Source: a virus. Taken from it: a stretch of DNA of 64,000 bases. The stretch covers positions 15,545 through 79,544 of IMG/VR virus record IMGVR_UViG_3300031372_000005. The stretch is one strand, 5' to 3'. The number at the start of each line of letters is the position of its first letter. Positions within the stretch are counted from its first letter, which is position 1. Below the pieces are notes generated by a model. The model ran no database searches and was not told the DNA's origin. It worked only from the letters and a program-made list of their open reading frames with translations. Both the position numbers and the translations under genes were made by a program. Shown in pieces: positions 1-5,587 of the stretch.

Positions 1-82
1 ACAGTAAAGCTTAAGTTCTTATGCATAGATTACTATGGTGTTTGCTGGTTTAGGATTAAAGATAAATAATTTCTATTAACTC

Positions 83-111
83 TTGACTTTCAATTATTAA
101 TTTGATATTCT
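83..111 (+). promoter_or_regulatory. sigma70-like promoter
   Basis: TTGACT-N17-TATTCT upstream of the ORF at 141. Confidence 0.7.
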
Positions 112-140
112 TACTCCATCAACTACAAGAGGCTCTTTAA

Positions 141-326
141 ATGGAAGAGAATCAAAGCTCTCTGTTTGGGAGCCAATTGCAAGAAATCATAGAAGATCAA
201 GAATTTCCAGATGTTGTTATTCTTGAAGAGGGTGGTAAAAGCTTTGTCTGGGAGCGAGCTTTTGAAAGTATCACAGAAAGAGGCAGAACACAGTTTTGGA
301 CTATTCTTTCAGACGATTATGATTAA
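141..326 (+). CDS. hypothetical acidic protein, 61 aa
   Basis: ORF with GAGG RBS downstream of a promoter; no recognisable motif. Confidence 0.6.
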   Translation: MEENQSSLFGSQLQEIIEDQEFPDVVILEEGGKSFVWERAFESITERGRTQFWTILSDDYD

Positions 327-339
327 ATAGTATAAAAGC

Positions 340-369
340 TTGACATAAATCAAATTATGTGTCTATAAT
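340..369 (+). promoter_or_regulatory. near-consensus sigma70 promoter driving the non-coding RNA locus
   Basis: TTGACA (340-345)-N18-TATAAT (364-369); the ORF track shows no ORF until 1592. Confidence 0.8.
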
Positions 370-375
370 AGTATG

Positions 376-1050
376 ACTAAAACAAGAAAGTTTTAGGTTA
401 ATTGCAACACGGATATTACGTTTATACGCGGCGTAATACGTTGACGAGCAGACCAGTGTGTTCAACCACGATGCAGCATTCAAGGGCCGACTACGTGAGC
501 GGTACAAGTTTTGTAGTTCTGCGAAATAAAAAGACTTCTGATCCCTAGTTTTAGGTTGTCTTCCCTACCTGCAACAAGGTTGAGCCGGTGTGCCAATAAA
601 GGGTTTAATTATCTAGTAGGCTCTTGAAGCACTTAAATACAGAAGCTGGCAGACGTGCTGGTAAGTCCTCGGAATTGCAACACTTCTCATAGAAGGGAAG
701 ATTTAGCATTAATGACTATAATGCTGAGTTGTTGTTGAACTTAGGGTATAGTTTACATGGCATACGGGGCAAAAATTAACCAAAACTTCTACGGGAAAAT
801 TTATTGTCCGCACCAAGAGGTTTCTTTGTTCACAAGTCAGAATGCGAACTACCCGTGAGGGTGTTCTGTCTGAAAGCTGATCGCCCTCCGTCAGTGATTA
901 AGATACGTTAGAGTTCTGATAAGCCGTCTTGAAGTAAACAGTCAAAGCTCTCTCCTACTAAAATCTTTGATATGAACTTCATGGTGCAAGACAGGCCACA
1001 GTAACCCGAAATAGTGGGGAATGTCGTCAGCCCGCACAAGCGGGGCATTA
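376..1050 (+). ncRNA. candidate large structured ncRNA (RNA1)
   Basis: Own promoter and no ORF; 15-bp long-range helix 388-403/774-788; many nested hairpins, including a GNRA-capped one (GAACUACCC-GUGA-GGGUGUUC); ends just before tRNA-His. Confidence 0.65.
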
Positions 1051-1055
1051 ATTCA

Positions 1056-1130
1056 GTGGGGCTAGTTCAACGGTAAGAACGTAGGGATGTGACCCCTAAA
1101 ATGAAAGTTCAATTCTTTCGCCTCACCCCA
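1056..1130 (+). tRNA. tRNA-His: tRNA-His (GUG)
   Basis: Cloverleaf: acceptor GTGGGGC/GCCTCAC, D stem GTTC/GAAC, anticodon stem TAGGG/CCCTA with loop ATGTGAC, T stem GAAAG/CTTTC with TTCAATT, C73 and encoded CCA. Confidence 0.93.
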
Positions 1131-1139
1131 AACATATAG

Positions 1140-1446
1140 ACTCACTAACGACACGTTTTAGTAACGTGTGCTAATTTTAGTGATTAGAGTACATGACACA
1201 ATTCTGATAAGAATTCACCACCACAAACTAAGTAAAACCTTCTCCCCAGAAATTGTGGTGTCTCCCCGCCGATCAGTACACGATGTACATTCTCCTCTCG
1301 GCAATTAAAGCGGCTCATCCTCTCCTATGAGTTTTGCTTTGCATTCTTGGTAGCTGCCCTCTCCCGGTTGCCAAGAATGATTTCTAAATAATCTTGTTGT
1401 TTATAAACGATAATGCAAGTGATCTTGTCAGGATTATTTAGAAATT
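1140..1446 (+). ncRNA. structured non-coding segment with repeated UCUCC motifs
   Basis: Consecutive hairpins (1218-1260, 1268-1302, 1314-1331, 1343-1379, 1380-1446); TCTCC at 1241, 1261, 1291, 1321, 1360; G-U pairs favour the + strand. Confidence 0.6.
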
Positions 1447-1465
1447 TATTTCTCATGAATATTTA

Positions 1466-1555
1466 CTTGGTCTCATGGGTTCGTCTATTGGTTAAGACTC
1501 CAACACCATTTACGGTGTATAATTGGAAAAAGTTGGTTCGATTCCAACATCAAGA
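1466..1555 (+). ncRNA. degenerate tRNA-like element with insertions
   Basis: D arm GTC-TATTGGTTAA-GAC, T arm GTTGG-TTCGATT-CCAAC, anticodon stem TCCAA/TTGGA enclosing 19 nt, acceptor-like CTTGGT/ATCAAG, no CCA. Confidence 0.5.
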
Positions 1556-1591
1556 AGTATTCAGCAGAAATAAATTTAGAGGAAATTAGGC

Positions 1592-2002
1592 ATGACAGGT
1601 CTTCCAAAAGATAAGCAAACTAAAAAACAGAAAGAAACTCAGTTCCAAGGCGAGCGCTCAAACCGGAACACGAAGTCAAACTCCAAGGTTCGAATCCAAA
1701 AGTCAAAGCTTCGTGCCACTGCCGAAAAGCTTCGTGAGATTGAAAGCACAGCCCTTGAGAATATCAAGAATAGTGTTGAAGGTAGAGAAGTTGAATCAAA
1801 GCAACTTGATTCTTCAAAGTGGGTTATCAATTCGCTGATTAGTTTAGATCGCGCTGCCTCACAAGAGGAGGCTTCTCTTACTAAGATCCGTCTTGAAGGT
1901 AAACGTTCAGACGATGATGAAGATGAGCAAGAAGTTGCTGAGATTGTAAAACTTGTACCTCGCCTCAAGCTGACATTCGATGAGCCGGAAAATAAGGAAT
2001 AA
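1592..2002 (+). CDS. hypothetical protein, possible terminase small subunit
   Basis: GAGG RBS; basic N-terminus with KETQFQG, reminiscent of TerS N-termini; acidic C-terminus; assignment tentative. Confidence 0.45.
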   Translation: MTGLPKDKQTKKQKETQFQGERSNRNTKSNSKVRIQKSKLRATAEKLREIESTALENIKNSVEGREVESKQLDSSKWVINSLISLDRAASQEEASLTKIRLEGKRSDDDEDEQEVAEIVKLVPRLKLTFDEPENKE

Positions 2003-2005
2003 TAT

Positions 2006-2167
2006 ATGAACCTGATTCTTCTAATCCTTATCCTCCTTTTGCTATTGCCAGCATTGGGCATCTACACAGTCGCTGTAAGCTTTAGCCTCATTGTAAAAAT
2101 ACTATTGATTATCCTTATCGTAGGCTTGATTGCCAACGTTTGGAGCGGTAATCGTCGCTGGTGGTAA
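2006..2167 (+). CDS. small two-helix membrane protein, 53 aa (not in ORF track)
   Basis: AAGGA RBS; MNLILLILILLLLLPALGIYTVAVSFSLIVKILLIILIVGLIANVWSGNRRWW. Confidence 0.75.
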   Translation: MNLILLILILLLLLPALGIYTVAVSFSLIVKILLIILIVGLIANVWSGNRRWW

Positions 2168-2239
2168 TCCTCAGTCTTGAATAATCAAGAGCATTCTGAA
2201 GAATAGCAATTTTATCTAAATTTGTTAAGGTGTGCTCAT

Positions 2240-3514
2240 ATGATATTCAAAGACAAAACTGATTTTACGTCAGAAGCTTTTACTGTAGAAGATAACAAGA
2301 TATTTGTGACAGTAGCTAACAAAGGCGTGGTGTATCTAGAGGTATTAGAGCAAGATGAAGAGTGGCGTTCATTTCCACAAACCACATTGTTAGGGCCAGT
2401 ATCCAAGTACGTTGCTGTTCCTTCTGAAATGTCTCTTCGTGTTAAAATTCCAACGCTTAATACTGTCTCAGCTTACAAGGCTATTGCTGTAGAGGTTGAA
2501 GAAGAGTTACCAGTAGAGCCTCCTGTCGTAGTTCCTCCGGCAGAGCTTAAGCAATCAGGTCCAAGTTTTGGGATGAATTTTGCTTCAGGTACATTCAGTG
2601 ATCATGACGTCACCAAGCTTCCTGGAATCTACAACACTCACTACACTTATCCTAATAAAGATACTTTCTCTCGCTGGAAAGCTCGTGGCGTAAAACACGT
2701 ACGCTTGCCTATTCGTTGGGAACGTATTCAGCGTACTCTCAATGCACCTTTGGATAGCGTGGAAGCTGCCCGCCTTCTTGCCGTATATGACATTGCAGCT
2801 TCATTGGATATGGTGATTGTCTTAGATCTTCATAACTACATGCAACGCGTTGTGAATGGCGTTAAGTATGACATTGGCACAAGCCAGGTTCCACAGATAG
2901 CTTACAACGATCTGTGGGTTCGTCTGGTAGCTCTTATTGGATCACACAAGGCATCATATGGCTACGGCATTATGAATGAGCCTATGGGCACACAAGGAAG
3001 ATGGGCCACTATTGCCCAAAGTGTTGTCAATGCTATCCGTGCAGTAGATCCTAAGACATACATTTTTGTCAATGGTGATCAGTGGGCCACACCTTTAAAT
3101 TGGGTGGCAGCAAATCCAGGCTTTCCGTTGCAAGGTGAAAATCTTGTTTATGAAGCTCACCTATATTTCGATAAGAATGCTGGTGGTGGCTACACAGATA
3201 TCAACGAGCAGATTGATTCTCAAGTAGGTGTTAATCGTCTTACACCATTTGTAAACTGGCTAAAGAAATATGGTCAGAAAGGTGTAGTGGGTGAAGTGGG
3301 TTGGCCTGCAAATAGTCCTACAGCGTTAGTTGCTGCACGCAACACTTTAACATTCGCTGCATCAAACAATGTGCGTGTATTTGGCTGGATGGCTGGCGAT
3401 TGGCTTGATGCAAGCAATATTCTTTCAATTGAAGTGAACGGTGTTGCTCAGGCACAACTTAATGTCTATCAAGAATTTAATAAGAATATGGTGCAACACG
3501 GCCCAAACGCATAA
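2240..3514 (+). CDS. glycoside hydrolase family 5 (endoglucanase/cellulase-like) with N-terminal extension
   Basis: GH5 motifs RLPIRWERIQ, LDLHNY, IMNEP (acid/base Glu), YEAHLYFD, VVGEVGWP (nucleophile Glu). Confidence 0.88.
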   Translation: MIFKDKTDFTSEAFTVEDNKIFVTVANKGVVYLEVLEQDEEWRSFPQTTLLGPVSKYVAVPSEMSLRVKIPTLNTVSAYKAIAVEVEEELPVEPPVVVPPAELKQSGPSFGMNFASGTFSDHDVTKLPGIYNTHYTYPNKDTFSRWKARGVKHVRLPIRWERIQRTLNAPLDSVEAARLLAVYDIAASLDMVIVLDLHNYMQRVVNGVKYDIGTSQVPQIAYNDLWVRLVALIGSHKASYGYGIMNEPMGTQGRWATIAQSVVNAIRAVDPKTYIFVNGDQWATPLNWVAANPGFPLQGENLVYEAHLYFDKNAGGGYTDINEQIDSQVGVNRLTPFVNWLKKYGQKGVVGEVGWPANSPTALVAARNTLTFAASNNVRVFGWMAGDWLDASNILSIEVNGVAQAQLNVYQEFNKNMVQHGPNA

Positions 3515-3528
3515 AGAGAGAGTCCACT

Positions 3529-3846
3529 ATGCAACACAAAAGGGGAGACAGCATTAGCTGGCTAGCACCAATTCCTGAAATATTTGCTGATGGCTATTTC
3601 GTAGGGTATGAAGTTTCATCACAAATTCGAACTGCTCAGTATGGTCAGCTTATTGCAAACCTTATCTGTGAGTGGGTAGATCCTGCCACGACACGAGAAC
3701 TTTTACTTACCTGTCTGGACACTAAAAGCTTTCCTGTCGGTGAAGCTGAAAATGATATTCAGTTTACTCGTATTTCTGATGGCTTTGTTCAAAGCTCAGA
3801 TACTTTACTCATTTCAATTGTAAGAGATGTGACTAAAGATGAGTGA
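3529..3846 (+). CDS. hypothetical protein, probable fibre anchor/adaptor
   Basis: KRGDS N-terminus, beta-rich; stop overlaps the collagen-like gene start. Confidence 0.5.
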   Translation: MQHKRGDSISWLAPIPEIFADGYFVGYEVSSQIRTAQYGQLIANLICEWVDPATTRELLLTCLDTKSFPVGEAENDIQFTRISDGFVQSSDTLLISIVRDVTKDE

Positions 3847-5587
3847 GACAATACCAATCAGTTTTAAAAACACTAACACTCCATTTCCTGCCCCAACTAT
3901 CACGAATTCCATCAAAGGCGAGAAGGGTGATACAGGTCCGATTGGCCCGCAGGGTATTCAGGGGCTAGTTGGTCCTCAAGGCCCTGCCGGTCAAGATGGC
4001 TTACAAGGACCCCAAGGCATTCAGGGCGAGGATGGAGTTCCTGGTACAAATGGGGCAACAGGTCCTCGTGGCGAACAGGGTCCGCAGGGCATTGCTGGTG
4101 AAGTTGGTCCCAAAGGTGAGGATGGTTTACAAGGTCCAATTGGTTTGACTGGATCACAAGGAGTCCAAGGTCCTAAAGGTGATACTGGTCTAACTGGTCC
4201 CAAAGGCGATACTGGAGCACAGGGCATTGCTGGTCCTCAAGGTATTCAAGGACTAACTGGGCCAGCAGGATCTGACGGCGCTGTAGGACCAAAAGGTGAC
4301 ACAGGTGCGCAAGGTCCAATCGGTCTTACAGGTCCTAAAGGAGATACCGGTAATCAGGGCATTCAAGGGTTGCAAGGTGTGCAGGGACCACAGGGAGTTA
4401 AAGGTGATACGGGCGCTACAGGTCCACAGGGTCCTACCGGAGCAGCGGGCAGTTCAGCGCCCAACGGTGCATTGGTTCTCACAGGACCTTACACTTTTAC
4501 TGATGTTGATCACAAAAAGCTTGTCCTAGTAGATTCTGCTAATGCTACAACATTGACATTTCCTCAGACGCTAACAGATGGTTTTAATGTAACTGTTTGG
4601 CAAATTGGTGTTGGTCAAATAGTATTTGAAATTGCTGGTCGTGTTGTACGAAGCAATGCATCGCGTATTGCTACGACCTATGCTGGAGACACAGTTAACG
4701 TTACAGTTACAAGCTCTTCGGTTGTTGCTACAGAATTTGCAACACCTCTTACTACGCAATACCAAAGCAATAGCGCAGCATTATCCTATACAAGCTCAAC
4801 AGCAGCGTCGTGGGCAACTACATTCCCAGCATTGATACTAGAAGCTGGTGGTGTGTATGAGATTGATTACAGAGTAGTATTTCAAACTGACAACACCGCA
4901 GCCTCTGTAAAGCTAAGCTTTCCAAATAATACCGGTTTGAGTAACGTTCAGCTTGATTACAAAATCCAACAAGCTGCCCCAGGTACAGCAGCTTTTAGAA
5001 TTGGATCTTTGTCAGCCAACACTTCAATGAATGCTGCTGGTACAGTTTCTGTTGCTAGCACGCCCTTGCTAGGACATTTGACCGGTAGGATCACTGTAGG
5101 TGCAAACACATTAACATTGGTTCCACAGCTTAGTGGTATTGGAGCTACGGGGACAGTTTCTGTAGCTGTTGGTGCTGCTACAATTATGGTCCGTAAAGTT
5201 TACGGGGCTCCTATGGTGTCTGTAGCCTATGGCCCTGAAAGGGTGATGGGTCTTGACACATCAGCATGGACTAAGACTTCCGGTGTAACTGTTAGCGGAA
5301 CTAAAATTACGGCTGTAAATGGCGGTAATATGATCTTCCGCGAAGGTGTGTTGACAGCAGGTAAAACCTATAAGGTTGAACTTGACATGACATTTACTTC
5401 AGGTGCAGAGGTCAGACTTATTACCACAAGTCCAGGCTCTGATGAGACAGGCCGTATCCGTTGGGCTGTTGTCAACGGTCACTTGACAGGCACATTCGTT
5501 GCTACGGGCACGTGGCTAGGTCTGGAAGCACGTAACGCTACATTCTCTGGTACAATTGATAATTGGACTGTGAAAGAAGTGCTCTGA
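3839..5587 (+). CDS. collagen-like fibre protein
   Basis: About 60 consecutive Gly-X-Y triplets (GPQGIQG, GPKGDTG) followed by beta-rich domains. Confidence 0.85.
   Translation: MSETIPISFKNTNTPFPAPTITNSIKGEKGDTGPIGPQGIQGLVGPQGPAGQDGLQGPQGIQGEDGVPGTNGATGPRGEQGPQGIAGEVGPKGEDGLQGPIGLTGSQGVQGPKGDTGLTGPKGDTGAQGIAGPQGIQGLTGPAGSDGAVGPKGDTGAQGPIGLTGPKGDTGNQGIQGLQGVQGPQGVKGDTGATGPQGPTGAAGSSAPNGALVLTGPYTFTDVDHKKLVLVDSANATTLTFPQTLTDGFNVTVWQIGVGQIVFEIAGRVVRSNASRIATTYAGDTVNVTVTSSSVVATEFATPLTTQYQSNSAALSYTSSTAASWATTFPALILEAGGVYEIDYRVVFQTDNTAASVKLSFPNNTGLSNVQLDYKIQQAAPGTAAFRIGSLSANTSMNAAGTVSVASTPLLGHLTGRITVGANTLTLVPQLSGIGATGTVSVAVGAATIMVRKVYGAPMVSVAYGPERVMGLDTSAWTKTSGVTVSGTKITAVNGGNMIFREGVLTAGKTYKVELDMTFTSGAEVRLITTSPGSDETGRIRWAVVNGHLTGTFVATGTWLGLEARNATFSGTIDNWTVKEVL
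3925..4452 (+). repeat. Gly-X-Y coding repeat
   Basis: GGN at every third codon. Confidence 0.9.

Follow-up and report, generated by a model that had tools for sequence, protein, structure and literature searches.

A promoter-driven non-coding region of structured RNA modules in a phage tRNA locus

What does a phage encode between a consensus promoter and a tRNA gene when the stretch between them, some 680 nucleotides long, holds no apparent gene? The question is raised by an 83,253-bp virus record of IMG/VR, of which bases 15545–79544 were analysed; this whole stretch of 64,000 nucleotides is called the window below. The initial annotation had proposed that the region specifies one ornate RNA of about 680 nt, either a distant relative of GOLLD and ROOL or a new class. 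We arrive at a different reading, to which we assign a probability of roughly 60%: the region is a non-coding operon in which a promoter, independent structured RNA cassettes and a tRNA-His gene follow one another (Table 1).

The DNA runs that contain the window sequence are phyllosphere metagenomes. Downstream of the region lie genes for a GH5 cellulase, a collagen-repeat fibre, a T4-type large terminase, a Mu-type portal and an E-type capsid protein, the last at most 39% identical to its counterparts in cultured Limnohabitans, Curvibacter and Pseudomonas phages (76–98 kb). At the DNA level, positions 1–1700 of the window have no match among cultured phages.

Table 1. Features from the promoter to the terminator-like hairpin behind tRNA-His (window coordinates)
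Feature	Position	Strand	Evidence or remark
Sigma-70 promoter, TTGACA-18-TATAAT	340–369	+	12/12 consensus match; predicted start near 376
Leader, 33 nt, lineage-specific, hairpin 377–396	376–408	+	hairpin z −2.69
Module A, structured RNA of ~118 nt	409–526	+	10 further copies with unrelated flanks; compensatory changes
Module B, ~88 nt, 5' hairpin domain and ~50-nt 3' core (563–604)	527–614	+	homologs; covariation
Linker with recurrent 17-nt motif (616–632), ends ACAGAA	615–644	+	motif recurs beside other modules
Segment E, lineage-specific insert of ~190 nt between B and C	645–829	+	absent where B/C or linker/C adjoin
Module C, ~165 nt	830–994	+	homologs L003, L025, L047/L138, L145; compensatory changes
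Spacer before tRNA, G+C hairpin 1031–1044	995–1055	+	flanks past 994 differ in L003, L025, L047, X20
tRNA-His (GTG), encoded CCA	1056–1130	+	60.2 bits; 100% identical in L145
Weak terminator-like hairpin and interrupted T run	1151–1169	+	lies in 1131–1213, the least conserved stretch (73.5% vs L145)

Promoter, coding capacity and the tRNA-His gene

The promoter, noted earlier as a near-perfect sigma70 site, matches the consensus in full and is the sole 12/12 site in the 64-kb window. It is 100% identical in L145, a metagenome contig that keeps the layout of the window at 92.5% identity over 58–3854. In two other contigs a promoter likewise stands upstream of module A: an 11/12 site about 100 nt away in L036, and in L030 a 12/12 site heading a stretch in which tRNA-Met, module A and tRNA-Gly follow one another on the same strand. 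The leader behind the window's promoter is missing from the RNA-library contigs X19 and X20, where a different leader takes its place. Also of note, a motif of about 30 nt (..GGTGAGAAC/AACAGGG..) is common to L029/L036, L028, L032, X19, X20 and L162, phages that lack the window's leader, and sits directly upstream of module A or, in L162, of the core of module B.

The absence of an open reading frame, on which the initial annotation had built, is borne out: the longest frame reaches at most 50 aa in 376–1055 and at most 58 aa in 327–1591. A hidden protein gene is ruled out, as none of the short frames matches PHROGs and homologous copies differ by frame-breaking insertions or deletions of 1, 2 and 20 nt; the region is therefore non-coding.

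The tRNA-His gene downstream was likewise correctly placed. Like its counterpart in L145, it has C73 (position 1127) and an A at −1 (1055–1056), with no genome-encoded G−1, which bacterial tRNA-His normally carries. Because the terminator behind it is weak, the promoter may also feed downstream genes.

At gathering score, Rfam 15 recognizes nothing in the region except the tRNA. When both strands of 1–1700 were scanned with cmscan, permissive filters and a cutoff of E ≤ 10 gave only noise and no GOLLD, ROOL, OLE, HEARO or group I match; neither the window nor 23 related loci had a GOLLD match at gathering score. With no Rfam match beyond the tRNA even at E ≤ 10, the region is not GOLLD, ROOL, OLE or a group I intron, and the proposed distant kinship with GOLLD or ROOL falls away. 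The group I model (RF00028) readily finds introns in relatives: in several of them, genes downstream of the locus carry group I introns (66–93 bits; L013 6543–6825, L030 4492–4723, L027 9284–9550, L034 4862–5107 and 6331–6542), of which the window has none.

Modules A, B and C and their occurrence in other phages

Relatives were gathered via a neighbouring 136-aa ORF and the GH5 gene, and all of them hold a variable, ORF-poor stretch at the same position, with tRNAs that differ from one relative to the next (Asn, Arg, Met, Thr, Pro, Leu or none). When these are compared with the window, the likeness breaks into discrete blocks. Block 407–526 is matched by L013 as the sole one of these relatives; blocks 527–614 and 829–989 are both matched in L003, where they are spaced by 10 nt as against 215 nt in the window; and block 1214–1444 is matched by many. 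Four complete relatives (G003–G006) have no counterpart of 370–1060. In our best reading, A, B and C are separate RNA genes, and which of them stand together in this variable, tRNA-rich locus differs from phage to phage; the locus looks like a general reservoir of non-coding cassettes.

Two further observations concern this reservoir. ORF-free stretches of 0.7–1.9 kb at the same genomic position in L008 (2061–4000), L012 (3119–3991), L011 (2725–3441) and L013 (632–1606) consist of other shared blocks and different tRNAs. The block at 1214–1444, module D, is a further conserved non-coding element upstream of ORF 1592–2002; common to L003, L009, L010, L012, L014 and L015 and partly present in RNA-library contig X23, it holds a 17-bp A+T-rich hairpin (1380–1396 with 1429–1445).

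Module A provides the clearest case of a structured RNA. Its further copies, nine from an exact-motif scan of IMG/VR and one found in L145 with a covariance model, resemble the window from one module edge to the other and have unrelated flanks. Its fold comprises a hairpin P1, a closing helix around a 4-bp hairpin with a conserved UUCAAC loop, and a long stem with a bulged hairpin. Across eight distinct sequences, aligned with indels of 1, 2 and 20 nt that exclude coding, standard pairs fill 98.6% of the cells of the five-helix structure, and compensatory changes are seen in 15 of its 37 pairs. None of 500 column shuffles equalled the observed pairing, the covariation score or the number of pairs with both sides changed; when the partners were displaced by 1–3 columns, pairing fell to 26–44%. 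Several invariant G·U pairs would be C·A on the other strand, so the module is read from the + strand, like the tRNA. Among the hairpins drawn in the initial annotation, TATTACG/CGTAATA and GCAGA/TCTGC covary, whereas GACTAC/GTAGTT has to be replaced, as covariation favours pairing of 472–480 with 507–515; in this helix the window's single C·U mismatch is a C–G pair in L145, X19 and X20.

The folding energy of module A is thermodynamically unremarkable (z +1.18), a typical trait where tertiary contacts or partners hold an RNA together. Its conserved unpaired junction and loop nucleotides, such as the UUCAAC loop, hint at contacts of this tertiary kind or at a partner, be it protein or RNA. The covariance model of the module, R1, scores 121–136 bits with exactly one copy per genome. 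Five complete genomes (G007, G013–G016) have module A and lack B and C; cultured phages have no match to it, and its motif is found in none of the bacterial species genomes. With 15 covarying pairs and no entry in Rfam, module A is a solid, very well supported new RNA family.

Module B has homologs in L003, L009/L136 and L137; it occurs apart from A and C in genome G018, with a tRNA-Gly 122 nt downstream, and adjacent to C, with neither A nor E, in genome G001. Module C is found apart from A and B in genome G017, with a tRNA-Met 85 nt downstream; the phages in which B or C stands alone measure ~90 kb. For module C, a 14-mer scan gave mostly chance matches and two true homologs. C comprises a 5' multi-hairpin domain closed by UCAGAA/UUCUGA, which includes a GUGA-loop hairpin, followed by a long 3' hairpin. 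The predicted structures of B and C keep 94–96% pairing, with compensatory changes in five pairs of B (5/500 shuffles) and nine of C (0/500 shuffles); this covariation is supportive, not conclusive, since each set holds four diverged sequences and the structures were derived from the same alignments. Of the second-domain helices described initially, the outer 3' helix is upheld by covariation: it shares the compensatory changes of C with two inner helices. The GUGA-loop hairpin and TCAAAG/CTTTGA are kept, but vary too little to be informative.

The core of module B, a CCCU/AGGG helix around two hairpins, is more widely spread. As a three-helix structure aligned over 11 sequences it is 96.8% paired, with four pairs changed on both sides, and it occurs in L162 and L169 and in further IMG/VR contigs. 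It is also the sole part of the region with a match among cultured phages: 62 records contain it, and those among the matches listed are T4-like coliphages (JS98, VR7, VR25 group), in which it falls in an unannotated 160-nt gap between ip7 and vs.8. As blastn gives weak E values here (0.1–0.5) that are unconvincing by themselves, the case for the T4-like core rests on its preserved helices and intergenic position. In Escherichia phage VR25 (L155 1447–1607, ip7–vs.8), the core forms the tip of an unannotated conserved element of about 130 nt; this T4-like element is absent from Rfam and from E. coli genomes. Judged by their alignments, the B core and module C are probably two new RNA families, and they too are absent from Rfam.

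The modules are under constraint. Identity with L145 is 94–97% for A, B and C, 92% for the GH5 gene and 95% for ORF 1592–2002; matching their neighbouring genes in this respect, the modules are constrained to a degree comparable to proteins.

Segment E, long-range pairing and RNA-library contigs

Do the modules nevertheless build one large RNA? Such a composite, a single ornate, tRNA-linked RNA of about 590 nt of the GOLLD/ROOL kind made of A, B, E and C (409–994), is unlikely in our judgement, although several observations speak for it. The order A-B-E-C is kept in the L145, X19 and X20 contigs, and since the flanks of X20 switch precisely at 409 and 994, the block behaves as a unit among close relatives. 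GOLLD, too, combines a variable 5' part with a conserved 3' part, and tRNAs may lie in its linker (10.1101/2024.12.08.627333). Long-range complementarity and 11-nt repeats exceed chance.

The RNA libraries bear on the same point. Four metatranscriptome runs contain parts of the region as Logan contigs: a 724-nt contig from soil (X20) covers 409–994 at ~94% identity between unlike flanks of 110 and 27 nt; a phyllosphere contig (X19) covers 409–768; a second phyllosphere run (X21) holds a 139-nt insert, 856–994, with adapters at both ends, so that an RNA fragment end coincides with 994; and X23 covers 1218–1288. The contigs bridge all junctions: RNA libraries thus contain molecules that span them, and the block is bounded at 409 and 994. 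The transcript predicted in the initial annotation may have a counterpart in this contiguous coverage of 409–994, which reflects either RNA that runs across the junctions or DNA carried over into the libraries. As 27% of the words of the structural genes from portal to capsid occur in X20 as well, its contig is no sign of special RNA abundance; DNA carry-over or general phage expression could account for its coverage. X19 and X21 are not among the runs listed for the portal-to-capsid genes.

At larger evolutionary distance, however, A, B and C never co-occur as a set, and B and C occur without A or E. Every helix that covariation supports lies within a single module, which argues against one ornate RNA, as does the occurrence of A, B and C apart, with unrelated flanks, in other phages. 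No helix between modules is conserved. The 15-bp closing helix proposed between 388–403 and 774–788 is broken in L145, where changes at 774–776 and 787 cost four pairs and 388–403 does not compensate; its 5' arm is missing altogether from X19 and X20, where similarity begins at 409. The arms of GAGCC/GGCTC and AGCAC/GTGCT, likewise drawn inside a single domain, belong to pieces found separately in other phages. Nor does the whole 680-nt stretch fold better than dinucleotide shuffles (z −1.41 on the + strand, −1.31 on the − strand), an outcome that the initial annotation had named as grounds for refuting its proposal. Thermodynamic support for the region is not significant, and on this count the proposal fails for the region as a whole. 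Among the modules and their surroundings, z values of about −2.7 are confined to the leader hairpin and the 5' half of C, and module B folds no better than shuffles. The structured modules stand despite these weak z values, because the comparative evidence supports them. Together with the lack of any Rfam match, these results lead us back to the reading of separate RNA cassettes behind one promoter.

Segment E also speaks against a single RNA. A third of the proposed unit, it is found only in the close relatives L145, X19 and X20, with nothing beyond chance 17-mers as homologs in IMG/VR, and it evolves fastest, being the least conserved of A, B, C and E (90.7% vs L145). Neutral and disruptive changes are mixed in its hairpin at 703–727. 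E is missing in L003, where B and C adjoin, and in L025, where the linker and C adjoin, and a short direct repeat surrounds it in the window (ACAGAA at 639–644, TCAGAA at 837–842). The motif of the preceding linker recurs before C in L025, after A in G019 and, in variant form, after B in L009.

Repeats of another kind link the leader to the array. Positions 389–410 of the leader are two adjacent exact 11-mers that recur at 547–557 in module B and at 673–683 in segment E (two repeats observed against 0.05 expected; 0/1000 shuffles). The 11-nt repeat pointed out in the initial annotation is thus real and non-random, but the duplicated module that it was taken to mark is not: R1 finds a single copy of module A in the window and in the whole genome, and no second, diverged copy at the 673 repeat. 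We infer that the 11-mers may be a trace of the promoter and leader being joined to the array.

Features of this sort could also be explained at the level of DNA: the modules would then lack an RNA function and be scars left by recombination, cassettes that home or insert, or tRNA genes in decay. We consider this very improbable for the modules. Their patchy presence and sharp boundaries, the CAGAA direct repeat around E, the recurrent linker motifs and the non-random 11-mers of the leader would all fit it, and a degenerate tRNA-like element at 1473–1556 shows that tRNAs decay in this locus. Against it stand the compensatory changes and strand-specific G·U pairs, which reveal that RNA structure is under selection in A and, with weaker support, in B and C, and a conservation equal to that of coding genes. 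As for decayed tRNAs, relaxed ARAGORN searches of 409–994 gave nothing credible and the Rfam tRNA model recognized only tRNA-His, so that A, B and C show no cloverleaf by either method. For segment E, a selfish or DNA-level origin may apply. What emerges for A, B and C is a promoter-driven, non-coding region of structured RNAs in a phage tRNA locus, absent from Rfam, and in this form the initial proposal survives.

Linkage to tRNA genes and relation to known RNAs

The modules tend to accompany tRNAs, with no fixed partner. In L026 and L029, tRNA-Asn and tRNA-Thr come after module A on its strand, and the B core of L162 lies just after an array of four tRNAs; for four module A copies (L028, L032, L033, L034) the fetched locus contains no tRNA, and none lies near the T4-like B-core copies. 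The elements might then act in cis, serving the maturation, stability or timing of tRNA-His or of read-through genes from 1592 on, as processing platforms or RNase barriers and not as trans-acting RNAs. The position of modules upstream of same-strand tRNAs in several phages and the weak terminator are in line with such a role, which we regard as distinctly unlikely given that what follows a given module varies (tRNA-His, -Asn, -Gly, -Met or no tRNA at all), that in L030 and L162 the module lies downstream of tRNAs, that the T4-like B cores stand apart from tRNAs, and that the elaborate conserved junctions of A exceed what a nuclease barrier needs.

In the operon reading that we prefer, transcription from the promoter would start near 376 and run through the leader and the A, B, E and C cassettes to tRNA-His at the end. 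Host RNase P, cutting at 1055/1056, would free the upstream RNA, and an endonuclease might then cut in the poorly conserved linkers to leave stable RNAs of 90–165 nt that would act in trans.

Precedents for such RNAs exist. In E. coli, the 3' external transcribed spacer of glyW-cysT-leuZ is one of the bacterial tRNA-precursor spacers that release functional RNAs. Like the modules in our reading, these are non-tRNA pieces of a tRNA transcript, functional in the case of the spacer RNAs after RNase processing. They are, however, short and little-structured sponges from host operons, whereas the RNAs described here are phage-carried and have elaborate conserved folds. Among phages, the closest parallel is T4, whose rnaC (species 1, 139 nt) and rnaD (species 2, 119 nt) are annotated as 'small, stable RNA' on the same strand as tRNA-Arg, head-to-tail and directly adjoining it in the T4 tRNA cluster, and are cut from tRNA precursors. 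The modules match them in size (A 118 nt, B 88 nt, C 165 nt) and, like T4-type RNAs, are non-coding pieces of the ~100–150-nt range adjacent to a tRNA on the same strand; they differ in lying upstream of the tRNA behind their own consensus promoter, whereas rnaC and rnaD lie downstream of tRNA-Arg. No homology links module A to rnaC or rnaD: within the T4 tRNA region the R1 score does not exceed 6.4 bits, and that on the strand opposite to both genes. Positions 527–1055, with B and C, yield other phages and no T4 among the blastn matches listed. By these comparisons the modules are analogues of rnaC and rnaD, not homologs. Both T4 RNAs were confirmed by Northern blot in a 2022 study, and their function is still unknown (PMC9697503).

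GOLLD is phage-borne and large, lies near tRNA islands, varies in its 5' part and sometimes has tRNAs embedded in it; ROOL, of ~600 nt, occurs in phages and prophages, often near tRNA islands (10.1101/2024.12.08.627333). The region shares with GOLLD (RF01998) its phage location next to a tRNA gene and differs in having no model match, no universally conserved 3' domain and parts that occur independently. From ROOL (RF03087) it differs in that no Rfam match, conserved global fold, long-range helices or pseudoknots were detected.

The enigmatic RNAs of phage tRNA islands include rnaC and rnaD of T4, known for 50 years, and the more recent GOLLD and ROOL, and we know of none among the four with an assigned function. 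What would be new here, in our best reading, is that RNA cassettes are shuffled within phage tRNA loci: tRNA islands could hold several small structured RNAs in a row, each conserved independently and recombining much as gene cassettes do. More tentatively, A, the B core and C may be three undescribed classes of structured phage RNA that unrelated phages exchange as cassettes and that mature, out of tRNA-operon transcripts, to stable RNAs acting in trans, for instance as decoys or sponges of a host or defence factor that handles tRNA. It is possible, with similar reserve, that as part of this exchange the B core is common to Felix-O1-like phyllosphere phages and T4-like coliphages. The presence of the core in the cultured JS98/VR7/VR25 coliphages makes the role of such non-tRNA RNAs testable in E. 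coli.

A last observation concerns the tRNA-like element at 1473–1556, flanked by a 23-nt inverted repeat (1442–1464 / 1555–1577). It has a good T arm with a TTCGATT loop and a D arm, an imperfect acceptor stem and a 12-nt insertion in the anticodon loop. Only with relaxed settings does ARAGORN report the element, calling it Ile-TAT with an 'intron'. Conservation in L145 is 97%, and the element is either a pseudo-tRNA or an unusual tRNA-like RNA.
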